From Bacilli bacterium (lineage in GTDB: Bacteria; Bacillota_I; Bacilli_A; RF39; UBA660): a DNA stretch of 64,000 bases. Location: assembly GCA_017428485.1 (NCBI GenBank), contig JAFRQT010000011.1:7301-71300 (forward strand), given 5' to 3'. The position numbers and the translations under genes were made by a program. This document shows, in pieces, positions 2 to 12,490 of this stretch; positions within the stretch are counted from its first letter, which is position 1, and each line of letters opens with the position of its first letter. A model generated the notes under the pieces. The model searched no databases. It was not told the DNA's origin and was given only the letters and a program-made list of their open reading frames with translations.

Positions 2-1897
2 GAATATGAAGTTGACTTATCTGCATCTAAGTATTCAACTCTTGGTACTACTGAGTTGTCACTAAGAGACTTTACTGAACCAAATACAAGTTTTCAAATT
101 CTTGGATTTGATTATAGTGAATTAGCTAGTGGAATTCAATTAGTTGAAAAAACAAGTATTAACAAAATTGCTAATACAACTAATGATGCAGATACCATTA
201 TGGGTCTTTCAATGGAAACAAGTAACTCTGGTTGGTTAACTAACGGTTATACATCATTCTTATCAAGAGCAAATAATAATATAATTGGTACTCGTGAGTA
301 TGTTGGTGGTAATAGTACATCGACACCAACCGTATTGTTCTACTTACACCACTCTAAGAATATTGGTACTTCTGGAGATATGGGTAGAGTTAGAATTCAA
401 TTGATGTCAGTAAGACAAATCGATGCCTTAACTAAAGAAACAAAGAGATTAATTGTTACTGTTAACTTAACACGTACATTATTCGATACGGTAAATTATG
501 AAGGAGCTTTAACACCAGGTAGAAAATATGATTTATTTACATCAACAACTGCTAACATTACTTCATCATCTGCTATAAGCACATATTATTCACTATTTAA
601 TTCTGGATCTACAATATATAGAACAGGATATTATAGAACATTGGTATCAAATTATGTTTTACCATTAAATACTAAAATTACTATGATAGACTTAAGTAAA
701 AATACACCTGAGTATTATTATCATATAATAACGCAATCAGATGTAAATGCCGCAACAACTGAATTGAGCACTAATAATGAGGTTACATATAACTTCTCAA
801 TGTTTGAAGTTATGGGAGCTATTAATAGTGGTGTTTACTATAGTGATGCTTCTAAAAATAGTGAATATTGTACTACAAATAATTATTGCAATGAAGACTT
901 CATATTTATAATTGATTTTGGTGATACGAATATAACATCTGATGCCCTTAATAATGAATTATTAATAGAAATAAGAAATGCTACAAATGACACAATTTAT
1001 AGTGTTTTAGCACCACAACATTTGGATTTGGTGTATAATATTTATGCTAACAAGGATGCAGTAATAGATATAGATGGTGAACTAGATAAGGATAAAATAT
1101 ATGCTGGTGAATCATTTACAGCAGATTTAAACATTGAATATACACAATCTACTGTTGGTTCTGCAACAATATATGATACACATTACTTTGATTCTAAATT
1201 AGGTATTAAGATATCATTAATTAATGAAGATGGTAATGTTGTTCCTGGAATTACTCTACTTGGTCTATACTACACTATTGGTGAAGATAGATATTATCCA
1301 AATATAGATGGAACTACAAGAGTTAAGATTGCAGATAAAGTTGATAGTGCTGAAAAATGGATAATTGTTAATACAGGAACATCTAGTCTTGCAAGTGGAG
1401 ATTACAAACTAAGAGTTGAGACATTTGGTTCTCCTGATGGCATTTATTACGGATTAAATTCTTCTGATTATATTGATTTTGATATTGAGATTGTAAATGA
1501 AATCTATGGTTTAAATATTGAAACATCAGCTGAGGAAATGATGATAGATGCAGAAACAGGATTAAATACAAATGGCGTAAATACTATAGTATATAATGTA
1601 AGATATAATTCCGGTCTTACAAATCCAAAAATTAATTTCAAAATGTATAGAAGAAATTATGATGAGGTATATGACACAACATATACATTAGTAGATGCAC
1701 TAGATTATTTTGATACTGTGTTGTTCCAAGGATATGATACAAATGAATATGTATTCTTAAGTGATCCAACGGATAACGCACAAGTAACATTTACATTAAA
1801 AGATAACTTATTAACAGGAACTTATAAAATAGAATTTATTCTTTATGGAGATACCTCAGTAATAGGTACTTTAGAAAGATATATTATTATAAAATAG
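2..1897 (+). CDS. C-terminal part of a large beta-rich, Thr/Asn/Tyr-rich extracellular-type protein (5' end outside window)
   Basis: Frame is open from base 2 (EYEVDLSASKYSTLGTTE) into the 613-aa ORF; composition is typical of surface Ig-like proteins; lies in the SipW cluster. Confidence 0.7.
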   Translation, partial: EYEVDLSASKYSTLGTTELSLRDFTEPNTSFQILGFDYSELASGIQLVEKTSINKIANTTNDADTIMGLSMETSNSGWLTNGYTSFLSRANNNIIGTREYVGGNSTSTPTVLFYLHHSKNIGTSGDMGRVRIQLMSVRQIDALTKETKRLIVTVNLTRTLFDTVNYEGALTPGRKYDLFTSTTANITSSSAISTYYSLFNSGSTIYRTGYYRTLVSNYVLPLNTKITMIDLSKNTPEYYYHIITQSDVNAATTELSTNNEVTYNFSMFEVMGAINSGVYYSDASKNSEYCTTNNYCNEDFIFIIDFGDTNITSDALNNELLIEIRNATNDTIYSVLAPQHLDLVYNIYANKDAVIDIDGELDKDKIYAGESFTADLNIEYTQSTVGSATIYDTHYFDSKLGIKISLINEDGNVVPGITLLGLYYTIGEDRYYPNIDGTTRVKIADKVDSAEKWIIVNTGTSSLASGDYKLRVETFGSPDGIYYGLNSSDYIDFDIEIVNEIYGLNIETSAEEMMIDAETGLNTNGVNTIVYNVRYNSGLTNPKINFKMYRRNYDEVYDTTYTLVDALDYFDTVLFQGYDTNEYVFLSDPTDNAQVTFTLKDNLLTGTYKIEFILYGDTSVIGTLERYIIIK

Positions 1898-1907
1898 GGA
1901 GGAATTT

Positions 1908-2009
1908 ATGAGCGAATTAAATAACAAAGATTTATTGGAACTTTATAAAATATTAAAGAATTTTGTAGAGAATTTAAGTCAAAAATTGGAGGACATTAAA
2001 AATGATTGA
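1908..2009 (+). CDS. 33-aa small protein MSELNNKDLLELYKILKNFVENLSQKLEDIKND
   Basis: GGAGGA RBS before ATG 1908; 3' end overlaps the ATG (2002) of the next gene; not in the ORF track. Confidence 0.6.
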   Translation: MSELNNKDLLELYKILKNFVENLSQKLEDIKND

Positions 2010-3513
2010 GAAGGTAAATGAAGAAATTGAAAAAATTAAATCTAACATAGATATCCTTCCTACAAATAATAAGAAGAATATTGAAAAATATACTGAATAT
2101 GTTACGAAATGTTTTGAAGAATGCCAAGCAAAATTAAAAGAATGTGAAAATGAAATTATTAGAAGAAAAGATAACATATCTAGCATGTATGAAAGCACTT
2201 TATTAAAATTAGACGAAATAAATCTTGATTATGATACATTAAAATTGTCAGATGTAAGATGTTCTTCAAATGAAAAAATGAATTTAAATTATTTATTATA
2301 CAAATTAAATAATTCAAGTGCTGAAGGATTAAGTACTATAAATGAAGTGATACAAGAAATATTTGATAGCTTTAAAACAGTAGGCATAATTCTAACTGAA
2401 AAAGATTTTAATCATACTGAAAGTGTTAATTTATATATAAGTACTTTATTGAATTCTAAAGAAGAAATTCAAAATATATTTAATGAAATATATTTTAAAG
2501 AACCAAATATTATTAAGCAGATATCTTTAAATGTATGGTATTTATATTATAAAAATAAATCTAAAATTGATGCATACTATAAAGAAAAATATGCTAAATT
2601 TGATTTCCATAATTATATAGCACTATATAGAGCAAAGCTAGATGATATTGAAAATATTAAGCATACAAACAAAAAATACATATATGATTTATTTATCAAT
2701 AGTGTTTTAGATATAGATGAGTATGCTGATGAAAACAAAATGAATATTTTGGTAAATAGTTTAGTAGCAAATATTGAAAATGTAAGGAATTATGGTAATT
2801 TAGTTAATTATAAAAAATCATTAATTGAATATAAAGGATATTCAAAATATCAATTTATAATTACTGATTTTAAAGAATTATTTAGCCATAAAGAAGAATA
2901 TAAAGACCTATTTAATAATAAGTTAAAAGAAATATCTAAAGAAGAGAAAAACCTGTTTTCAATTAATAAAAAGATTAATAAAAAAGGTCTATTTAAACTT
3001 AATAGAGAAAAACTTGCTAATGCTAAACTTGATAGAGAAAAAATAATAGCTAACCTTTTAAATTTGTATAAGGAATTAGATGAACTTGCAATTAAAGATG
3101 TAATTAAAAATTATTTCACTAATGAAACTAATTATTATGATGTTTTAAAATTAACTACATATAATTTTAATTATTTTATTAGCTTATTAGAAAAACAAGA
3201 AGTAGAGATAAATATTAAATCAATAGATGATAATATACATGAATTACAAAAATATATTTATGACAGAAACGTTGATGTAATTGACAACATTGGTTTATTA
3301 GAGGAAAAAGATGTTTTAGAAATGATTACTCAAAAATATAAATTGAATGGTATTATTGTCGATGAAGAAAAAATAAGTGGTGATCAAGTAGATAAGGTTA
3401 TTGAAAGTATAGATAAATTATTAATATATTATGACATAATTAATCTTGGGATTAATTTAAAAGATATAAAATTTGTTATTGATTCTAGCAAAGAATTGAC
3501 TAAAAATGGGTAA
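2002..3513 (+). CDS. hypothetical helical/coiled-coil protein (503 aa)
   Basis: Long ORF with GGAGG RBS; K/E-rich; no recognised motif. Confidence 0.75.
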   Translation: MIEKVNEEIEKIKSNIDILPTNNKKNIEKYTEYVTKCFEECQAKLKECENEIIRRKDNISSMYESTLLKLDEINLDYDTLKLSDVRCSSNEKMNLNYLLYKLNNSSAEGLSTINEVIQEIFDSFKTVGIILTEKDFNHTESVNLYISTLLNSKEEIQNIFNEIYFKEPNIIKQISLNVWYLYYKNKSKIDAYYKEKYAKFDFHNYIALYRAKLDDIENIKHTNKKYIYDLFINSVLDIDEYADENKMNILVNSLVANIENVRNYGNLVNYKKSLIEYKGYSKYQFIITDFKELFSHKEEYKDLFNNKLKEISKEEKNLFSINKKINKKGLFKLNREKLANAKLDREKIIANLLNLYKELDELAIKDVIKNYFTNETNYYDVLKLTTYNFNYFISLLEKQEVEINIKSIDDNIHELQKYIYDRNVDVIDNIGLLEEKDVLEMITQKYKLNGIIVDEEKISGDQVDKVIESIDKLLIYYDIINLGINLKDIKFVIDSSKELTKNG

Positions 3514-3547: not shown

Positions 3548-4081
3548 ATGAAGATAATTGGTAATGTGATAAAATGGGTGTTGATTAGTATTTGGGTTGT
3601 AGTTGCAATAATAACAACGATACTATTGCTTTCCTATAACAGATATAGTGTTAGCGAAATTGGTGATTATTCAATATTTATAGTTGATAACGAAAGATTG
3701 GAACCTGATTATTTAAAAAATGATATTGTTGTAGCAAAAAAAGTAGCTGAGAGCAAATATAGTGTAGGAGAATTCGCATTTTTCTATATTGATAATCCAG
3801 AAGATGCAGTATTTATTAATTATGGAAAAATAAATAAAATTGATTCAGTTGATCATGCTGAAGATGCATATTATTTTGGAGATGATTCAGTATCATATAA
3901 TAAATTAATTGGCCCTGCAAAAGACGCTAAAATATATCATAAATGGGGATTAGTTTTATCGATATTAGAATCAAAATGGGGATTTATGTTTTTCATCATA
4001 TTCCCAACAATATTTGCAGTTGTTTATGAGGTTTATTCAATTATAGAAGAAGTTAAATCTAGTAAAGATGAAGAAGAGTAG
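3548..4081 (+). CDS. degenerate SipW-like (S26) membrane protein lacking catalytic Ser/His
   Basis: Same TM-domain-TM layout as the SipW paralogues; IVDNERLEPDYLKNDIVV replaces VxxGSMEPxxxxxDLIIV, and INYGKI replaces ITHRI. Confidence 0.6.
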   Translation: MKIIGNVIKWVLISIWVVVAIITTILLLSYNRYSVSEIGDYSIFIVDNERLEPDYLKNDIVVAKKVAESKYSVGEFAFFYIDNPEDAVFINYGKINKIDSVDHAEDAYYFGDDSVSYNKLIGPAKDAKIYHKWGLVLSILESKWGFMFFIIFPTIFAVVYEVYSIIEEVKSSKDEEE

Positions 4082-4709
4082 AATTAAAATATTATTATGG
4101 ATAGGTGTATTAGCTTTATTTGCAATGACTGCTATAATATTTAAAAACACATATGCTTTATTTGAGACAGATGCATATGGTATTGCAAATAATGATATAG
4201 GAAGATGGATAATAAAATTAAGCAATCAGCTAATAACATCTGGTTTAGATGAAGATATAACTATAAGCAACTTTGTATATGAAAGTTCTGCTACAGTTGC
4301 TGATGGATATATTGCGCCTGGAACAAGTGCGTATTTTGATTTAATATTTGATGCTACCGACTGCGATGTTGCAGTAAAATATGATATTGAATTTTTAGTA
4401 GATGAAATCGATTATGAAGACAATATCAATGTTAGCGTTGAAGCTTTAAATTCAGGAAGCACAATAAGAACAGATGTTAACACATATTCTGGAATAGTTA
4501 GTTTAGCTTCAATACAAAATGATGAAGTTATAACCATAAGAGTAACATTAAATTGGGATGATGATGGAAATCATGATGAATCAGATACTGAATTAGGAAT
4601 GGTTGAAAATAACCAATTGGCTATTCCTATTAATGTGCATGCTGTTCAATATTTGGGAGAAACTTTAGTTGAATACCAAGATCCAAATGAAGGTAATGAA
4701 GGAAATTAA
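4068..4709 (+). CDS. SipW-class signal peptide protein (TasA/camelysin-like)
   Basis: Basic N-terminus, TM helix, KNTYA|LFET cleavage-type motif, IAPGT motif. Confidence 0.7.
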   Translation: MKKSRIKILLWIGVLALFAMTAIIFKNTYALFETDAYGIANNDIGRWIIKLSNQLITSGLDEDITISNFVYESSATVADGYIAPGTSAYFDLIFDATDCDVAVKYDIEFLVDEIDYEDNINVSVEALNSGSTIRTDVNTYSGIVSLASIQNDEVITIRVTLNWDDDGNHDESDTELGMVENNQLAIPINVHAVQYLGETLVEYQDPNEGNEGN

Positions 4710-4769: not shown

Positions 4770-5468
4770 TTGCTAGTGTTTTTAGTACTAGTATTAATAA
4801 TAATTGGTAAAGTTAGAATGATGCTAAAAGGAGAGGATTATTTCGAATTATTTGGATACTCTGTTTTTAGCGTGGCAACCGGAAGTATGGAACCAACTAT
4901 TAGTCAAAATGATTTAATAATTGTAAAAGATAGTAATAATTATAATGTTGGAGATATTGTTACATTTAAAAATGAAAAATCATATATCACGCATAGAATT
5001 GTAACTGTAAATACTAATAGTTATGTTACTAAAGGAGATGCTAACAATGCTAAAGATGTGGCGATAACTAAGGATAAAATAATTGGAAAAGTTATTAAAA
5101 TATCTTCAAAAGCGGGTATTTGGCATAAAGTATTAACTACTCCAACAATATTAATAATGATTTTTACAACATTAATATTATTTGACTTTGCATTTTCTTA
5201 TAAGGGATATAAAGAAAAGAAAAATATTAAGATAATAAATAAAATACAGAATATTCCTTTAGAAGAAATTAATAAAGAAAAAGATAGTCCAAAAATGACT
5301 AATGATGAAATAAATGAATTGTATAAGAAAACTGACAAAGTAATCAATGGTGAAAAAGTCACTTTTGACAAAAAGGAACAGGAGTTCTTAAATTATACTG
5401 TAAGATTAGATTTAGATGAGTTAATGAAAAGAATTGATAATAATATGAATGGAGATAATAATGTTTAG
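4770..5468 (+). CDS. sipW: signal peptidase I, SipW type
   Basis: VATGSMEP, ITHRIV, VTKGDANNAKD motifs; true start is probably slightly upstream. Confidence 0.85.
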   Translation: MLVFLVLVLIIIGKVRMMLKGEDYFELFGYSVFSVATGSMEPTISQNDLIIVKDSNNYNVGDIVTFKNEKSYITHRIVTVNTNSYVTKGDANNAKDVAITKDKIIGKVIKISSKAGIWHKVLTTPTILIMIFTTLILFDFAFSYKGYKEKKNIKIINKIQNIPLEEINKEKDSPKMTNDEINELYKKTDKVINGEKVTFDKKEQEFLNYTVRLDLDELMKRIDNNMNGDNNV

Positions 5469-6060
5469 TGATTTCTTTAAAGCATTTGATAAAAAGAAAT
5501 TTCTATTAGTAACTAAACTAATATTTGTTTTTGTATCGCTAGTTTTAATAGTTAATATAGCTGGAAGAACATATACAAGATATGAATCGGATGTTGATGT
5601 AAGTGCCAATGCAAATGTTGCATTCTTCGTTATAGATCAAGGATTATATGAAAATCAAATATATATTGATGGATTGGAACCTAGTAGTGCACCTAAGTAT
5701 TATAGATTTTATGTTACTAATAAGAAAAATAATAAAAGGGCAGATGTTGATTTAGAATATACTATTAAGTTTGAAACGACTACTAATCTCCCATTACAGT
5801 ATGAAATAATAAGAAATCAGTCCTTTGAAGGAGCACACACAAATATAATTTCAAATACACTTTTGAGGCAAGATGATAATGATGTATATTACAAAGTTTA
5901 TAATTGCGATGATGTTAGAACTTTTAGTCATTTGAGAGATGAAACAGATGAATATACATTGAAAGTTGTTTTCCCTTTAGAAAACAAAAATAAGCCAGAT
6001 TCTTACCAAGGGGTTATTGAGATGTTTTCCATTATTATAAACGCATCCCAAGTTGCATAA
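5461..6060 (+). CDS. SipW-class signal peptide protein
   Basis: TM followed by GRTYT|RYES; LEP motif; GGAG RBS before ATG 5461. Confidence 0.65.
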   Translation: MFSDFFKAFDKKKFLLVTKLIFVFVSLVLIVNIAGRTYTRYESDVDVSANANVAFFVIDQGLYENQIYIDGLEPSSAPKYYRFYVTNKKNNKRADVDLEYTIKFETTTNLPLQYEIIRNQSFEGAHTNIISNTLLRQDDNDVYYKVYNCDDVRTFSHLRDETDEYTLKVVFPLENKNKPDSYQGVIEMFSIIINASQVA

Positions 6061-6101: not shown

Positions 6102-7004
6102 ATGAAGAGACGTAAAATATTGATAATATTAATAATGATTATACTATTACTTCCATTAGGAATTACATTTAGTAGATATGTAACTGAAAATATAAAAAAT
6201 TATTTAATGGAAGCAAATAATTTCTTTTTTAATAGCGATAAATTAGTCTCTGGCGGTATTACCTATGGAATTAATAACTGGGGTGGTGCGAGTAACATTG
6301 AAATACAGTTTGAACTTAATAACCATAAGAATAATATATTAACAAGTGATGCTGATATTTCATATACACTTACTACTACTTGTGATAACACTTTAATTCT
6401 TTGTAACTTAAATTCTAATAGTGGAGTTATTCAAGTGGCAGAAAAAACAGATAACTTTACTTTAACAATCATTCCTGTTCGTGCTTTTGCTGATAATGAG
6501 TCTATCACGGCAACAGTGACTGCCTCATCTAGTAGTCCTTATGAGAAAACATTAAGTGCAACTTTTGTTGTTACAGTAGGTCGAAGAGGAGTTGATTACC
6601 AAATAACTGATAGTGTTGGTTCTCCATATTTAATTTTTACTGTTACAAATGCATTAGACACATATAAAGTAATAACTCCATTTGGAGATTATACTGCCGG
6701 ACATTTATTAACGATTGATGAATATTTAGCATTGTCAAGCGCTGATAAAGCTAAATGTGCGTCAGTTGTAATAACATTATCATTTGATCCTAGTGTGATT
6801 ATCATTGATACAACAAGTGATATAGTTGCTTCGTCCACAACACAGACGACCGCATATCAGGGAGTAAACTATATAAGCAGTATAACATTCCCAATGGATA
6901 TGATGATGAGCCAAGAAGTAAGATTTTATAAAAGAAATAGTAGTATAGATTATACATACCCGATTGTTAATAACACACCTGTAATATCATTTACTGCTAG
7001 TTAG
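6102..7004 (+). CDS. SipW-class signal peptide protein (300 aa)
   Basis: MKRRK, TM, GITFS|RYVT motif; Thr/Ser-rich beta mature region. Confidence 0.65.
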   Translation: MKRRKILIILIMIILLLPLGITFSRYVTENIKNYLMEANNFFFNSDKLVSGGITYGINNWGGASNIEIQFELNNHKNNILTSDADISYTLTTTCDNTLILCNLNSNSGVIQVAEKTDNFTLTIIPVRAFADNESITATVTASSSSPYEKTLSATFVVTVGRRGVDYQITDSVGSPYLIFTVTNALDTYKVITPFGDYTAGHLLTIDEYLALSSADKAKCASVVITLSFDPSVIIIDTTSDIVASSTTQTTAYQGVNYISSITFPMDMMMSQEVRFYKRNSSIDYTYPIVNNTPVISFTAS

Positions 7005-7012
7005 GAGGAAAA

Positions 7013-7990
7013 ATGAATTGTATTTTTGATGATTATATGAAATTTATTGATAATTTTCTTTCTAGCTATTTTAGAATTTTACTAGCCAATAAATATGAAA
7101 GAAGTTTAGTAAGGCCTTTTATAGATAAATACATTAGTATTAGGTATTATAATGAATTTGTAATAAAAGAAAATAAATTTACTGAAAGATTAAACAAAGA
7201 ATTAAATAGCATTGCTAAAGAGATGATTAAAGAAAATGAGGATAAGGCAGAGAAAATTAAAAATATTTTTGCATTATTTAGTTATGTTTTGTTCATAGAA
7301 AAATGTGAAACGCCAAATGAACTAAATTCTTTAATTAAAACATTATTTAGTGATACTACAATTACGTTAGTATATAACATAACTGCTAAAGAAGAATTAA
7401 CAGCTTTATTGAGAAATTTTTTAAGCAAGAAACAAGAATTATCTAAGATATTTACTTCAAATGAATTTAGTTTAAATGAAAAAAAATATCAAGGATATAT
7501 AAGTATGGTAACATTAGATCAAAATTGTAATTTATCTAAATTATATAGTGAATATGCTATAGAAAAGGCTTATAATTCTGAAATGGTGAATGAGAATAAA
7601 TTATATTTATCATTACTTTTGATATCTTATAGGGTAATAGATGATATAACTAAATTAAATTTTAAAAATGAATATGTTGTAGATTTCCCAACATCATTGT
7701 TCGGAAAGCAAAAGAAAATACTTAAATATTTAAGAGTACTTGACAATGAGTTTTTAAAATCCAAGGTTAATTTGAAACTGAAATATAAAGAATATAAAGA
7801 AAACAAGAAGACTGTTAATAAATTAATTAATGAAGGATTTAGCATTTGTGTTGAACTAGATGAGAGTTACGATATGGATTTTGATAATTTATTATTATTT
7901 AGTTATATTTTTGTTAACAAAAATGCTAAATATTATGATATTATTATAAATAGTAGAGAGGATATAGGAACAGAAATAGTTGTATTGTGA
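7013..7990 (+). CDS. hypothetical protein, possible degenerate EAL-like C-terminal domain
   Basis: AGGAGG RBS; KLINEGFSICVELDES...LLLFSYIFVNK resembles the EAL LxxxGxxIAIDDFG...DYIKID segment without the catalytic residues. Confidence 0.5.
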   Translation: MNCIFDDYMKFIDNFLSSYFRILLANKYERSLVRPFIDKYISIRYYNEFVIKENKFTERLNKELNSIAKEMIKENEDKAEKIKNIFALFSYVLFIEKCETPNELNSLIKTLFSDTTITLVYNITAKEELTALLRNFLSKKQELSKIFTSNEFSLNEKKYQGYISMVTLDQNCNLSKLYSEYAIEKAYNSEMVNENKLYLSLLLISYRVIDDITKLNFKNEYVVDFPTSLFGKQKKILKYLRVLDNEFLKSKVNLKLKYKEYKENKKTVNKLINEGFSICVELDESYDMDFDNLLLFSYIFVNKNAKYYDIIINSREDIGTEIVVL

Positions 7991-7998
7991 GGTGAAAG

Positions 7999-9537
7999 AT
8001 GAAAACTTTTATAAAATATTTTTATGAAATACTATCACAATTCTTTTCGGGATTTATATCAATATTTAAAGGGATAATAAACGGAATAAAGAAGATTTTT
8101 GATATAGGGGCATATATTAAGATAGCATCAAATTATAAAAATGATTTTAATATTGGTGAGTGGGTATTATTTGGTATATCAGTATTAATATTATTAATAT
8201 TTGTTGGTTTAGTAGTGCTACTAGTAGTATTTATTATAAGAAAGTATATAAGATTTAGAAAAACAATTGTTGAACAAGAGTCAATGTTAGATGAAATATC
8301 TGATTTGAATGGTAGAGTAGCGACACTTCTTAAAGAAAAAGAAGATATTTTAGCTATGAAAGTTTCTCAAATTGGTCTAAAACCTAATGAAAGTGCTACC
8401 TTAGAAAAAATCGAGGGTGAGGAGAACAAGCCAGAGGAAGAATTGGATACAAATACATCTATCAGATTTGCTAAATTGCATGATGTTGACTTAAAATATG
8501 CTGATTATAAGATTCCTAATTATGGTAATAACTTTAATTTACAAGAATTGGTTGAATTGTTTAGAAACTTCGCAGCTGGCAAGTTAAAATTGTACTATAA
8601 AACAGAAATGATAAGATTATTTATATCAGCTTTAGCAAGTACAAAGCTTGTAATTTTACAAGGTATATCTGGTACCGGTAAAACATCACTTGCTTATGCT
8701 TGGGGAAAATTTTTAAAACATGACTCATGTGTTGCTTCCGTACAACCATCTTGGCGTGATAGATCAGAACTTTTTGGATATTTTAATGAATTTACAAAGA
8801 AATTTAATGAAACAGATATATTAAAAGAATTATATGAAGCAGGATATACAGATGATATACATACAGTAATCCTAGATGAAATGAATATATCTCGTGTCGA
8901 ATATTATTTCGCCGAGATGCTATCTATTCTAGAAATGCCTAATCAAGATGAATGGATAGTTGAAGTAGTTTCATCTGGATGGGCAAGTGACCCTATTCAT
9001 TTAAAAAATGGTAAATTAAAAATACCACCTAACTGTTGGTATATTGGTACAATCAATAACGATGACTCTACATTTATGGTTACTGATAAAGTGTACGACC
9101 GTGCTATGCCTATAGATATTAATGATAAAGGTCAAGTTTTTGAACCTGAGGATGTACCTGCTCAAGATATTAATTACTCATATGTAAATCAATTGTTTAA
9201 AGATGCAATTGCTAGCAATGAAATGAGTGAAACAGTATTAAACAAAATTGAAGAAATGGATGATTATGTTATCAAACATTTTAGAATTGCTTTCGGTAAC
9301 AGAATTGTTGCCCATATGAAAAAATTTGTTCCAGTTTATATTGCCTGTGGTGGGGATGAAGTAGACGGAGTAGACTATTTCATAGCAAGAAAAATACTTC
9401 GTAAATTTGAACAATTAAATATCTCATTGATTCGTGATGAAATCGATGGATTTGTTGAATTCTTGAATAAAACATTTGGTGAAAATAAAATGAAAGAATG
9501 TATAGAATATGTGTTAAGGCTTAAGAAGATGTCTTAA
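7999..9537 (+). CDS. membrane-anchored McrB-like AAA+ NTPase
   Basis: N-terminal TM (WVLFGISVLILLIFVGLVVLLVVFII) plus coiled coil; Walker A GISGTGKT, VQPSW..LFGYFN, Walker B ILDEMN, GTINNDD (NxxD), KVYDRA. Confidence 0.8.
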   Translation: MKTFIKYFYEILSQFFSGFISIFKGIINGIKKIFDIGAYIKIASNYKNDFNIGEWVLFGISVLILLIFVGLVVLLVVFIIRKYIRFRKTIVEQESMLDEISDLNGRVATLLKEKEDILAMKVSQIGLKPNESATLEKIEGEENKPEEELDTNTSIRFAKLHDVDLKYADYKIPNYGNNFNLQELVELFRNFAAGKLKLYYKTEMIRLFISALASTKLVILQGISGTGKTSLAYAWGKFLKHDSCVASVQPSWRDRSELFGYFNEFTKKFNETDILKELYEAGYTDDIHTVILDEMNISRVEYYFAEMLSILEMPNQDEWIVEVVSSGWASDPIHLKNGKLKIPPNCWYIGTINNDDSTFMVTDKVYDRAMPIDINDKGQVFEPEDVPAQDINYSYVNQLFKDAIASNEMSETVLNKIEEMDDYVIKHFRIAFGNRIVAHMKKFVPVYIACGGDEVDGVDYFIARKILRKFEQLNISLIRDEIDGFVEFLNKTFGENKMKECIEYVLRLKKMS

Positions 9538-9556
9538 TAAATAGAAAGGGTTAATA

Positions 9557-10684
9557 ATGCACAGTGATTTAAGAGTTGTTGACTTATATAACAACACAAG
9601 ATCAAAAAAAATTACAAAATTTAAAGCATCATTGCAGTCAGAATACTCTTTAGCTTCTAACTATGAAAAGATAGAAGCTGATTTCACGTGGCTTGAAATA
9701 ATGGAAGATACAATAATGTATCTTGACAATATACTTAGAAACCCTAATAGATTTATTGTAAATGAAGAAGAAATTGTTAAAGTTGAGCAAGCAAGAAGGA
9801 TAACAGTTGAAAGTATTAAGCACTTATCTAAGCATACTAACTATATTCAAGAAATAGAAGATAATGGGGATGTTAGACCTTCTAAAATATTAAATATTAA
9901 CAAAGATGAAAGTTATAATACCTATGAGAATAGATTGATATATACTTTAATCAACAATATGAGGATGTATATTGATATGAAAGAACGAAGCATGGTTGCT
10001 AGTTCTAGATTGAGAGATAATAAAGTATGCGAATATATGGGATCATCTAAAATAGGTGCAGAAAGAATAAATATTAATATGCATATTAGTTCAAAAACTA
10101 GTTATGATAAAGAAGATGGCGAAAGAAATGGAATGACAGCATTTGAGAGATTAGATAAATTGAAATTAAGAATATCTGATTTGACTAATACTCAAGTATA
10201 TGTTTCGCTTGCAAAAGAACACGTTGCGAGAGTTATACCACCTATTAAAAAGACTAACCTAATACTAAAAAATACTAACTTTCAATATGCAATGAAATTA
10301 TGGGACTTCTTGCAAGCAAATACAAATTATGGTAATGGTGTAACAAAAGATAAAAAGTTAATAGACAATGATTTAGGCGTTAAACAAATGCTTGATGATA
10401 CTTTTTTACTAAATTATTTGACAATGTCTAGTATCGATAAAGAAGATGGTATTCTTGATGACAATGCTAAGTCTGAATTAGTAGAAGAAATAACAAATAA
10501 AATGATAGACAAAATTGTTGAATTAAATGCGGATATGCCTGTTGAAAAGTTACAACAAACACTTGGCGATAAGATTGCTGTTATTAAAAATAAACATGAA
10601 GCCACTCTTGCTGAACTTGAGCATAAATTCAATGAAAGAATTGATGCTTATGTTGGTAAGATTTTAGAATTTAGTTTTAGGTGA
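9557..10684 (+). CDS. DUF2357 (McrC-like N-terminal) domain protein
   Basis: ILRNP...EE, SYNTYENR and TNLILKNTNF motifs; adjacent to the McrB-like gene; no PD-(D/E)xK motif seen. Confidence 0.7.
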   Translation: MHSDLRVVDLYNNTRSKKITKFKASLQSEYSLASNYEKIEADFTWLEIMEDTIMYLDNILRNPNRFIVNEEEIVKVEQARRITVESIKHLSKHTNYIQEIEDNGDVRPSKILNINKDESYNTYENRLIYTLINNMRMYIDMKERSMVASSRLRDNKVCEYMGSSKIGAERININMHISSKTSYDKEDGERNGMTAFERLDKLKLRISDLTNTQVYVSLAKEHVARVIPPIKKTNLILKNTNFQYAMKLWDFLQANTNYGNGVTKDKKLIDNDLGVKQMLDDTFLLNYLTMSSIDKEDGILDDNAKSELVEEITNKMIDKIVELNADMPVEKLQQTLGDKIAVIKNKHEATLAELEHKFNERIDAYVGKILEFSFR

Positions 10685-10689
10685 TTTAT

Positions 10690-11259
10690 ATGAAAAAGAT
10701 TAGACAATTTAAAGAAAAATTGAAGAATAACATAGTTTTGAGGATATTAAGAGTTATAGTGTATGTAATTGTTGCTTTGTTATTGCTCGTGATTATTGTT
10801 CAAAAATTTAGTAATAATAGCATATCTGTTGGAGGTTTTAGAATATTTACTGTAGTTTCTGGATCAATGGTTCCTGAATATAATATCGGAGATATTCTTT
10901 TGTCCAAAAAAACTGAGGCTGAGAATATAGAAATTGGGGATAATGTTACATACTTAGGTAAAACAGCTAGTTTAAAAGACATTATCATTACTCATAAAGT
11001 AATTAAAAAAGATAACCGAAATGGCGATTATTATTTTGTTACCAAAGGAGTTGCTAACGCAATAGCGGATCCCGAAATATCATATGATCAAATATATGGT
11101 AAAGTAGTATATAAAACGGCAATATTAAGTATTTTTGGAAAATTAATGAATAATAGATTTGTGTATTTTTTCACATTCATGATAATAGCATTGATAGTTT
11201 CCATAGAAATTATCTCATCTGTGTTTAGTGCAGGGGATGAAGATGATGGAAGAAAATAA
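10690..11259 (+). CDS. sipW: signal peptidase I, SipW type
   Basis: VVSGSMVP, ITHKV, VTKGVANAIAD motifs. Confidence 0.85.
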   Translation: MKKIRQFKEKLKNNIVLRILRVIVYVIVALLLLVIIVQKFSNNSISVGGFRIFTVVSGSMVPEYNIGDILLSKKTEAENIEIGDNVTYLGKTASLKDIIITHKVIKKDNRNGDYYFVTKGVANAIADPEISYDQIYGKVVYKTAILSIFGKLMNNRFVYFFTFMIIALIVSIEIISSVFSAGDEDDGRK

Positions 11260-11896
11260 AAAGAAAAAAAATACTTTTCTAAAGATACTAAAGAAAATAA
11301 GACTAAGACATTTTATAGCATTAGGATTATTCTTAACAGCAAATACATATGCATGGTTAATATATGTAAATACAGTAAACAATAGTGTAGACGTTCATGT
11401 TAGAACGTGGAAAATAGATTTTACTGATGGTGATACACCAATCATAGACTATATAAATATAGCAGCTGATAATGTTTATCCTGGTATGAGTAATTTTACT
11501 AATACAATAACTGCATTTAATTATAGTGAAGTGCGAGCAACAGCGATGTTTACTATTTTAGAAGCTAATATAATGGGTGATACATTTAAAACAGTCGAAG
11601 GAAGACAGGAAGATAATGAAAATGTTGTTACTGGAGATCTTACAAGTGATCAATTTAAAACTAAGTTATTAAATGATTATCCTTTTAAAATATCATTTAC
11701 GATGTCAACATCATCTATAGCTGCTGAGACGGGCTTGGCAACATTTACAACATCTATTGTATGGCCATATGAATCAGGAAATGATACATTAGATACTTAT
11801 TGGGGAAGTAGGTCATATGATTATATGTCATCACATCCAAATGATCCATGTATACAGATAAAAGTCAAAATATATATTACACAAGCAAATAGCTAA
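11243..11896 (+). CDS. SipW-class signal peptide protein (TasA/camelysin-like)
   Basis: Basic N-terminus, ANTYA|WLIY, NVYPG motif, DTYWG similar to DTELG in the 4068 protein. Confidence 0.7.
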   Translation: MMEENKKKKNTFLKILKKIRLRHFIALGLFLTANTYAWLIYVNTVNNSVDVHVRTWKIDFTDGDTPIIDYINIAADNVYPGMSNFTNTITAFNYSEVRATAMFTILEANIMGDTFKTVEGRQEDNENVVTGDLTSDQFKTKLLNDYPFKISFTMSTSSIAAETGLATFTTSIVWPYESGNDTLDTYWGSRSYDYMSSHPNDPCIQIKVKIYITQANS

Positions 11897-11915
11897 TACA
11901 TTGTATTAGCTATTT
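11887..11915. terminator. bidirectional intrinsic terminator
   Basis: aaatagctaataca-t-tgtattagctattt inverted repeat between convergent genes. Confidence 0.75.
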
Positions 11916-12490
11916 TATTGTAATTGAATTACATTAACGTTAACTTTTACAGAAGCAACTCCATCAACAGTAGCTTCTGTGTCATCTGCATTATCCATAG
12001 TTTGAGTAGCAGCATCATCATTCCATTTTACAAAGAATGTTATTGTAACACTTCTATTAACGTCGTTTAAAAGTATATTGTTTGTTATACCATTTGTATA
12101 TTGGTATTCTACATTATCTATTACATATTTAGTAATTACTAAATCATCTACTGTATTATCTTGAGCATCTTCCAAAGTAACAGTATAAGTGAATGATACA
12201 TCAGTATCAGTTCCATCTATTGTTATATCAAATGACCCTTCGGCAGTAGGAGCAATAACTCCACTTTTTATATTTGTAGTACCAGCAAAAGTTGGCACAA
12301 TTGTATCTGTGAAATTTGAGTTATCTACAATATCTTGATTATTTACAAGTACATTCCATCTTGCAACTATTAAATATGCATTAGCGCCAGCACTTGAAAC
12401 GTACTTAGCATAAGTCTCTTGCATTAAAGAGACACAATAAAATAAGGACATTAAAGATATAAAAAATATAATTTTTCTTTTAATTTTCAT
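11915..12490 (-). CDS. SipW-class signal peptide protein (TasA/camelysin-like)
   Basis: QETYA|KYVS; ARWNV, IAPT, DVSFTY and WNDD...DT motifs shared with the 4068 protein; own promoter TTGTAA-17-TATAAT at 12548-12520. Confidence 0.7.
   Translation of the reverse strand: MKIKRKIIFFISLMSLFYCVSLMQETYAKYVSSAGANAYLIVARWNVLVNNQDIVDNSNFTDTIVPTFAGTTNIKSGVIAPTAEGSFDITIDGTDTDVSFTYTVTLEDAQDNTVDDLVITKYVIDNVEYQYTNGITNNILLNDVNRSVTITFFVKWNDDAATQTMDNADDTEATVDGVASVKVNVNVIQLQ

Follow-up and report, generated by a model that had tools for sequence, protein, structure and literature searches.

A membrane-anchored McrB-like NTPase and a nuclease-free DUF2357 partner within a SipW-type signal peptidase and surface-fibre gene cluster of a Bacilli bacterium

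Introduction

What is a relative of the restriction system McrBC doing in the middle of a cluster of genes for secreted surface proteins? The question is raised by two adjacent genes in a 64,000-nucleotide stretch of DNA from a Bacilli bacterium (GenBank assembly GCA_017428485.1, contig JAFRQT010000011.1, positions 7,301 to 71,300). This whole stretch is called the window, and coordinates are given in it, on the plus strand unless stated otherwise. The first gene (7999..9537) encodes a membrane-anchored, McrB-like AAA+ nucleoside triphosphatase (NTPase) of the NxD clade, 512 residues long, and the second (9557..10684) a nuclease-free, McrC-like partner of 375 residues with a DUF2357 domain. 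Both open reading frames (ORFs) are as described in a first-pass annotation made from the letters of the window alone, in which the pair was taken for McrBC machinery turned from restriction to a membrane role or, alternatively, for a membrane-sensing defence variant. Gene context supports the first of these proposals (synteny with SipW and fibre genes, neither DNA reader nor nuclease), but the idea is not new: a repurposed McrBC has been published under the name CoCoPALM (Bell et al. 2024, cited here for its paragraph on CoCoPALM, its definition of the NxD branch and its supplement), and the present locus is one more member, described in further anatomical detail. The defence variant is less likely than repurposing, and its only link to a defence library is a partial match to the PADLOC candidate model PDC-M26A. 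We consider it fairly probable that the pair, derived from McrBC and devoid of nuclease and DNA reader, is an integral, NTP-driven part of a SipW-dependent surface-fibre (pilus-like) operon and acts on fibre biogenesis.

Results and Discussion

Linkage of the pair to signal peptidase genes

A scan of species-representative genomes gave at least 613 pattern matches, of which at least 605 encode a relative. The counts below refer to the best 80 loci among the matches listed, all from named species-representative genomes; these are metagenome-assembled genomes labelled Tenericutes/Mollicutes/Bacilli, Erysipelotrichaceae, Clostridia, Ruminococcus, Acutalibacteraceae or Oscillospiraceae. The partner gene lies immediately downstream of the NTPase gene in 78 loci; in the remaining two the contig ends less than 200 bp further on. 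SipW-like ORFs (counted at E <= 1e-5), one or more per locus, are present in 77 of the 80, and a peptidase gene directly follows that of the partner in 49. On the other side, the gene directly upstream of the NTPase encodes the 325-residue cytoplasmic domain found in the window at 7013..7990, a SipW-like protein, or both in 71 loci (the domain alone in 35, a fusion of the two in 12, SipW alone in 24), and is of unknown or other type in nine. Secreted ORFs in which an N-terminal hydrophobic segment is followed by the motif [ST][YFW][AST]x[FYWLI] occur, at least one per locus, in 71/80. The linkage is complete in a closer set of 11 NTPase copies, from loci of nine related genomes: the partner follows and SipW-like ORFs are nearby in every case. 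The pair is a fixed part of a signal-peptidase/surface-fibre cluster across Bacilli and Clostridia, and not a stray defence cassette.

The gene junctions in the window suggest translational coupling, which we count in favour of an integral role, as stop codons fall within the ribosome-binding site of the gene that follows. The stop of the 325-residue gene lies inside a GGTGA ribosome-binding site, 8 nucleotides before the ATG at 7999. At the other end of the pair, where the first-pass annotation had seen the partner's stop abutting the ribosome-binding site of sipW, the TGA does lie inside AGGTGA, five bases before the ATG at 10690 of the SipW-type peptidase gene.

An McrB-like NTPase behind a membrane anchor

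The NTPase belongs with McrB on the basis of profile search, fold comparison, its DUF2357 neighbour and the PADLOC match. Taken singly, the sequence is not recognised by Pfam as AAA_5/McrB, the AAA_5 model (PF07728) giving no match even at E <= 10 and nSTAND3 only a sub-threshold one, and a single-sequence search of solved structures gave nothing useful. A profile built from 150 family members, run against solved chains, found 14 sequences at E <= 1, and chains of Escherichia coli McrB were the sole matches at E <= 0.001 (6hz4_A, 3.4e-4; 6ut6_A, 8e-4; 7vsr_A, 8.5e-4), the match spanning Walker A through the signature motif. Foldseek, run with the AlphaFold2 model (mean predicted local distance difference test score, pLDDT, 92.9; predicted template modelling score, pTM, 0.73; residues 130-147 disordered, with pLDDT under 50), returned AAA+ proteins of the MCM/McrB/MoxR/dynein group. 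PDC-M26A matches the P-loop/GTPase domain with E 4.8e-35, residues 183-320 aligning to positions 301-438 of the 724 in that profile.

The model shows an AAA+ fold from about residue 158, and column counts and fold matches support the assignment of an AAA+ domain with a lid (8470..9534). It contains the Walker A motif GISGTGKT (residues 222-229, nucleotides 8662-8685), the Walker B motif LDEMN (292-296, 8872-8886) and the sequence NNDD (353-356, 9055-9066). In the alignment of the 150 family members, G222 and K228 of Walker A, D293 and E294 of Walker B, N296 and R299 each occur in 144-147 rows, and because of this conservation across relatives the NTPase looks catalytically competent. Further along, N353 is found in 143 and D355 in 144 of the 150 rows, with no fixed residue between them at 354; position 356 holds aspartate in 107 rows and glutamate in 33. 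Judged by these columns, the family signature is N353-x-D355-(D/E)356, that of the NxD clade, which Bell et al. 2024 define as NxD with, in most cases, E or another D after it. The Walker motifs reported earlier are therefore intact, but the NxxD signature reported with them is corrected to NxD(D/E), even though a literal NxxD (N353...D356) can be read in this protein and the ungapped HMMER alignment sets D356 against the signature D of E. coli McrB.

The N-terminus holds no DNA-binding domain. Residues 1-157 consist instead of amphipathic helices, a transmembrane (TM) helix, a long helix and a disordered linker, in agreement with the TM helix and coiled coil recognised in the first-pass annotation. 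The first ~50 residues (7999..8157) are modelled by AlphaFold2 as three short amphipathic helices (2-24, 26-33 and 36-45; pLDDT about 90-94) with a mean hydrophobicity of 0.6-0.8 and hydrophobic moments of 1.2-2.6. A single TM helix follows at about residues 54-80 (8158..8238); its best 19-mer, residues 62-80, reaches a Kyte-Doolittle value of 3.75 and lies within the only strongly hydrophobic segment of the N-terminus. A membrane-proximal long helix or coiled coil (residues 81-124, 8239..8370) runs on from it, the model showing one helix over 52-124, and an acidic flexible linker (residues 125-157, 8371..8469; net charge -5, pLDDT about 43-45 at 130-147) leads to the AAA+ domain. Five lysine or arginine residues occur in the 15 positions after the TM helix, compared with a net charge of +1 before it, so the positive-inside rule would place the AAA+ domain in the cytoplasm and the first ~50 residues outside the cell.

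A McrC-like partner without a nuclease

Residues 30-153 of the partner match Pfam DUF2357 (E 4.1e-10, 39.7 bits, cut-off 23.3), and this is the sole DUF2357 gene in the genome. The AlphaFold2 model is of moderate quality (pLDDT 76.7, pTM 0.48). It includes a long predicted beta-hairpin at residues 149-186 (10001..10114; strands 149-166 and 169-186, pLDDT about 79-92), which may correspond to the 'finger' that McrC inserts into the ring of McrB. Beyond the McrC-like N-domain the protein has only about 117 residues, modelled as one strand and a C-terminal tail of four helices (273-293, 302-323, 329-347 and 351-370; 10373..10666; pLDDT 48-89, moderate), which takes the place of the canonical McrC nuclease.

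A nuclease fold was sought in this C-terminus and none was found, as no nuclease family of Pfam matches the partner, the 42 aligned partner sequences share no PD-(D/E)xK-like or invariant acidic-x-Lys motif, and the moderate-confidence model shows the region as mainly helical. The earlier description of a DUF2357 protein with a nuclease-less helical tail holds, and from alignment and model the nuclease appears to have been lost from the partner. Nor was one found in the NTPase or among the locus ORFs scanned against Pfam. Conserved blocks in the 42 rows are Y123-E-N-R126 and P229..W249, and R61, R126, K232 and K238 are invariant basic positions. Against solved structures, a search with the single partner sequence gave nothing useful and a profile search nothing meaningful; with the partner model, Foldseek found nothing at E <= 0.001, and PADLOC gave no match for the partner or the 325-residue protein at E <= 0.01.

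Partners from Clostridia are longer, at 677-874 residues; when four of them were scanned against Pfam, one matched coiled-coil families only and three matched none. In relatives from Ruminococcus and Acutalibacteraceae (loci L067-L102) the DUF2357 partner is apparently lengthened by a very long coiled coil.

Conservation and distribution

The NTPase has at least 8000 significant homologues, the best 120 being 73-91% identical over their full length. The partner, with 2888 homologues, diverges faster, and the 325-residue protein has only 88. Compared with one related genome (G030), the NTPase is 59% identical, the partner 35% and the pilin-like proteins 22-32%. Among representatives clustered at 50% identity there are 8270 NTPase relatives at E <= 1e-3 and 759 at E <= 1e-30, and the best 150 include long proteins (roughly 470-870 residues) with a C-terminal GTPase and no TM segment. 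A FastTree phylogeny was computed from 131 of the 150 aligned rows, the other 19 being fragments, lacking a recognisable Walker A, or having fewer than 100 residues before it. TM-bearing proteins make up 73 of the 131 rows, and the TM label requires 4 changes on the tree against a mean of 43 when shuffled (0/500 shuffles as low). The window NTPase falls in a clade of 33 rows (98% Shimodaira-Hasegawa-like support), 32 of them TM-bearing and the exception a fragment of 374 residues.

Within the genus, the NTPase was found in 21 of 24 genomes; the other three have completeness values of 45%, 67% and 90%. Of 16 genomes sampled from the rest of the class one has it, as do 121/399 in a wider draw of the class at E <= 1e-100. 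By family, presence in that draw is high in some (21/27, 23/31, 20/22, 6/7, 8/11), nil in others (0/39, 0/23, 0/22) and 20/50 in the window's own. Some genomes hold two or three copies. Conservation of this kind is unlike that of a typical defence gene, and we count it in favour of a role in the operon. The neighbourhood, a conserved surface-fibre operon beside rpsF-ssb-rpsR and not a variable island, makes a defence variant less likely.

A divergent paralogue type, seen in locus L100 (and in L098 and L101), combines a 501-residue NTPase with a partner of 356-365 residues and is flanked by proteins of 357 and 556 residues. It is also present as a second copy in some genomes (G008, G021). An ORF upstream in L100 resembles a group II intron reverse transcriptase and may encode one.

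Neighbouring genes

The cluster is co-directional. It opens with a giant protein and continues with a 503-residue protein, the SipW-like 3548, secreted 4068, peptidase 4770, secreted 5449 and 6102, the 325-residue 7013, the NTPase, the partner, peptidase 10681/10690 and secreted 11228, after which come the convergent gene 11915 and rpsF-ssb-rpsR.

Two SipW-type signal peptidases score above the TIGR02228 cut-off of 51.85 bits. In the first (4770..5468; E 6.5e-22, 78.1 bits), of SipW/Sec11 type, the Ser-His-Asp motifs are intact, with GSMEP, THR and GDAN aligning to SEC11, and there is a cytoplasmic tail of ~90 residues. The second (10681..11259; E 7.2e-23, 81.2 bits) comes right after the partner, its likely start being the ATG at 10690; the Ser and His are kept and GVAN replaces GDAN. 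A third, SipW-like protein (3548..4081) reaches only 21.5 bits and is without the catalytic Ser and His, having NERLEP for GSMEP and INK for THR/THK. Both of its TM segments are present, and its gene overlaps the start of the neighbouring secreted-protein gene by 14 nucleotides. SipA, a pilin-assembly protein, is itself non-catalytic. By analogy with SipA (4N31), which the supplement of Bell et al. 2024 likens to the peptidase with an HHpred E of 8.1e-8, the 3548 product is probably an inactive, non-catalytic paralogue.

The 325-residue protein is cytoplasmic and belongs to no known family. It aligns to the C-terminal parts of proteins of 670-834 residues with SipW-like N-termini (BLASTP E 1.6e-13 to 2.6e-17), and this fusion ties the cytoplasmic side of a peptidase to the gene adjoining the NTPase. 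In the window, two secreted-protein genes separate the 4770 peptidase from the 325-residue gene, as though a fusion had come apart here or none had ever arisen. In the Clostridia loci (L067-L102) the domain is absent, and a SipW-like gene of ~240 residues lies directly upstream of the NTPase instead.

Five small secreted, pilin-like proteins were recognised by the motif scan. Each has a basic N-terminus and a hydrophobic segment, then T[YF][AST]x[FYL], the post-TM motif typical of SipW substrates of the TasA/CalY type. They are encoded at 4068..4709 (TYALF, no Pfam match), 5449..6060 (TYTRY), 6102..7004 (TFSRY, 300 residues), 11228..11896 (TYAWL) and, on the minus strand, 11915..12490 (TYAKY). 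Homologues of the 11228 protein likewise come after the peptidase in L010, L016 and L019. Genome-wide, the motif is present in just 19 of the 401 ORFs with an N-terminal hydrophobic segment, and four of these 19 are within the ~9-kb locus, where the fifth secreted gene falls below the hydrophobicity cut-off of that scan. NCBIfam searches with these proteins at E <= 10 returned nothing above noise. Further motif ORFs lie elsewhere in the genome (C21:781-1917, C25:22470-23894, C15:30450-34607); one of those outside the locus reads STYAWFTAN, and one overlaps the genome's only weak Peptidase_M73 match. Four more SipW-like ORFs are also found outside the locus, on contigs C47, C25, C42 and C5. Since SipW-like and motif-bearing ORFs lie outside it, other SipW-dependent loci without a McrB-like gene exist in the genome.

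The giant surface protein that opens the locus is represented by its C-terminal end (2..1897), the ORF, of more than 3064 residues, running off the contig start. It has many VYGGGN-type repeats, and its C-terminal region has homologues at the locus heads of two other genomes (L010, L019). The 503-residue protein (2002..3513) is cytoplasmic, with neither a TM segment nor a Pfam family. It is kept at 24-28% identity in the corresponding loci L010, L013 and L014, and may be a further part of the system on the cytoplasmic side.

A possible role in fibre biogenesis, and the alternatives

If the pair works on fibre biogenesis, the McrB-like subunits would assemble into an AAA+ ring just beneath the membrane, on its cytoplasmic side, tethered by six TM helices through the long helix and the acidic linker. 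The DUF2357 partner would dock in this ring by its McrC-like N-domain and beta-hairpin, and would stimulate NTP hydrolysis as McrC does for McrB. In place of activating a nuclease, the hydrolysis cycle would move the partner's helical tail (in Clostridia, the very long coiled coil), and this motion would act on cytoplasmic parts of the peptidase machinery, namely the 325-residue domain and the tail of the 4770 peptidase. The cycle would thereby control or power the way in which TasA-like subunits and the giant adhesin are processed, released and polymerised. A bolder version, which we put forward only tentatively, is that CoCoPALM is an NTP-powered biogenesis machine for TasA-like fibres, in which monoderm and wall-reduced gut bacteria have made a restriction motor the cytoplasmic engine of a new pathway of pilus assembly, coupled through the cytoplasmic domain of the signal peptidase and taking the free 7013-7990 domain as its signal input.

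Several observations weigh against a role in fibre biogenesis. The function of any CoCoPALM member is read from its context. In the TasA-type fibres examined to date, assembly is extracellular and proceeds by donor-strand exchange, and the excerpted text of PMC11580942 names no dedicated cytoplasmic NTPase for them. The likeness of the small proteins to TasA is drawn from the N-terminal motif and one weak language-model lead: the TasA/camelysin model PF12389 (Peptidase_M73) matches none of the five and, in a genome-wide search, gave only weak matches, all on other contigs, while the nearest Pfam-bearing Atlas cluster to the 11915 gene carries Peptidase_M73 on 22% of its members (score 0.93, a lead only). 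The GTPase domain strongly matches a PADLOC defence candidate, and the nearest non-membrane relatives, the CoCoNuTs, are predicted to be defence systems. In the window's own family the NTPase is patchy (20/50 genomes). Finally, three of the 80 loci (L098, L100 and L101) have no SipW-like ORF in the available flanking DNA even at E <= 10, and so the pair can occur away from peptidases.

The alternative that survives best, although we regard it as unlikely, is a regulatory switch. Here the complex and the 325-residue domain, possibly a decayed domain of second-messenger type, would only gate SipW activity or the output of fibre genes on a cytoplasmic signal, doing no mechanical work on the subunits. 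To our knowledge, no McrB-type ring with McrC in its pore threads a substrate, which suits a switch, as does the position of the 325-residue domain on the cytoplasmic side of the peptidase in the 12/80 loci with a fusion. The domain also has a weak EAL lead (Atlas score 0.89 to a cluster in which 13% of members carry EAL), but profiles do not support it: none of 29 family members matches Pfam EAL (PF00563), no EAL chain is among the 11 sequences found at E <= 10 when the family profile is compared with solved structures, and hhalign of the family against 22 EAL domains from genomes of the class gives an insignificant match over 78 co-linear columns (E 0.018, 2.6% probability). Moreover, Clostridial loci do without the domain, and only a peptidase is upstream in 24/80.

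Slightly less probable again is a membrane anti-phage or abortive-infection module, in which the pair would sense infection at the envelope and switch off the cell or its fibre apparatus; peptidases and fibres would then be the structure sensed or guarded (for example a phage receptor) and not the product. Descent from McrBC, the prediction by Bell et al. 2024 that the coiled-coil relatives without TM segments are defence systems, the patchiness at family level and the two or three copies in some genomes all fit such a module, as does the PDC-M26A match. That match is partial, however, and no effector is seen: there is no nuclease, and PADLOC matches neither the partner nor the 325-residue protein. 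The very high conservation and the fixed synteny in a housekeeping-like surface operon, in two classes, also speak against defence, as do the G+C content (0.28-0.30), which does not differ from that of the flanks, and the lack of mobile-element genes from the locus up to rpsF-ssb-rpsR.

A cell-division or envelope factor with an FtsB-like anchor, unrelated to fibres and in the operon by chance, is very improbable, as the N-terminal FtsB-like domain noted by Bell et al. 2024 has an HHpred E of 1.2 in their supplement, DivIC/FtsB is absent from the 12 weak Pfam matches of the NTPase at E <= 10, and chance does not explain peptidases in 77/80 loci, gene fusions included. Two further candidates were rejected: an inactive relic by the conservation of all NTPase motifs, and an independent mobile insertion into the operon by the conserved synteny and the fusions.

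A part in fibre biogenesis, if true, would mean that TasA-type fibres have a dedicated cytoplasmic NTPase in many gut and rumen bacteria, and would give a clear example of exaptation, the motor of a restriction system having been taken over for cell-surface biogenesis. CoCoPALM is abundant in uncultured small-genome Bacilli, where it adjoins a giant adhesin-like protein, and may for this reason bear on attachment in the gut.

Comparison with known systems

Canonical McrBC of E. coli (6hz4, 6ut6, 7vsr) shares with the present pair the AAA+ core fold, Walker A, Walker B and the sensor Asn, a partner with the McrC N-terminal domain, and the order of the genes, B before C. It differs in that the window NTPase has a TM anchor in place of the DNA-binding domain and NxD(D/E) in place of NxxD, the partner has no PD-(D/E)xK nuclease, and the genes are set in a secretion/fibre operon. 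CoCoNuTs (CnuB/CnuC) belong to the same NxD GTPase branch, but carry long soluble coiled coils and nucleases (HEPN and others) with predicted RNA targeting, whereas the window NTPase is TM-anchored and its pair nuclease-free. Component A of PADLOC PDC-M26 shares the GTPase domain; the best stretch covers 138 of 724 profile positions, the second component has no match here, and a full-text literature search found no paper under the name PDC-M26.

The SipW-TasA/TapA operon of Bacillus subtilis, CalY of B. cereus and BsaA of Clostridium perfringens resemble the locus in having a dedicated SipW-type peptidase beside small secreted paralogues with a similar post-TM motif. The differences are that the subunits in the window fall short of the Peptidase_M73 model, and that no McrBC-like NTPase is named for those operons in the excerpt of PMC11580942. 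The literature search gave no other description of a McrB/DUF2357 pair with SipW-TasA fibre genes; McrB is mentioned in a preprint on C. perfringens BsaA, a search hit whose context was not seen.

The closest counterpart is CoCoPALM, for which only Bell et al. 2024 and its preprint were relevant in that search. Bell et al. named it and deferred it to a later publication, describing an NxD-clade McrB GTPase fused to an FtsB-like transmembrane and coiled-coil domain, a DUF2357/McrC homologue that usually has a coiled coil and no nuclease, and an association with the signal-peptidase family. The locus is a CoCoPALM-type module: an NxD GTPase with a TM and helical N-terminus, a nuclease-free DUF2357 partner and signal-peptidase genes are all present, every testable feature of the description was found, and nothing essential differs. 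To that published paragraph the locus adds the peptidases as SipW/Sec11-type enzymes in active and inactive copies, substrates with a TasA-like signal motif, a giant adhesin-like protein opening the locus, and a 325-residue cytoplasmic domain, either free or fused to the peptidase.

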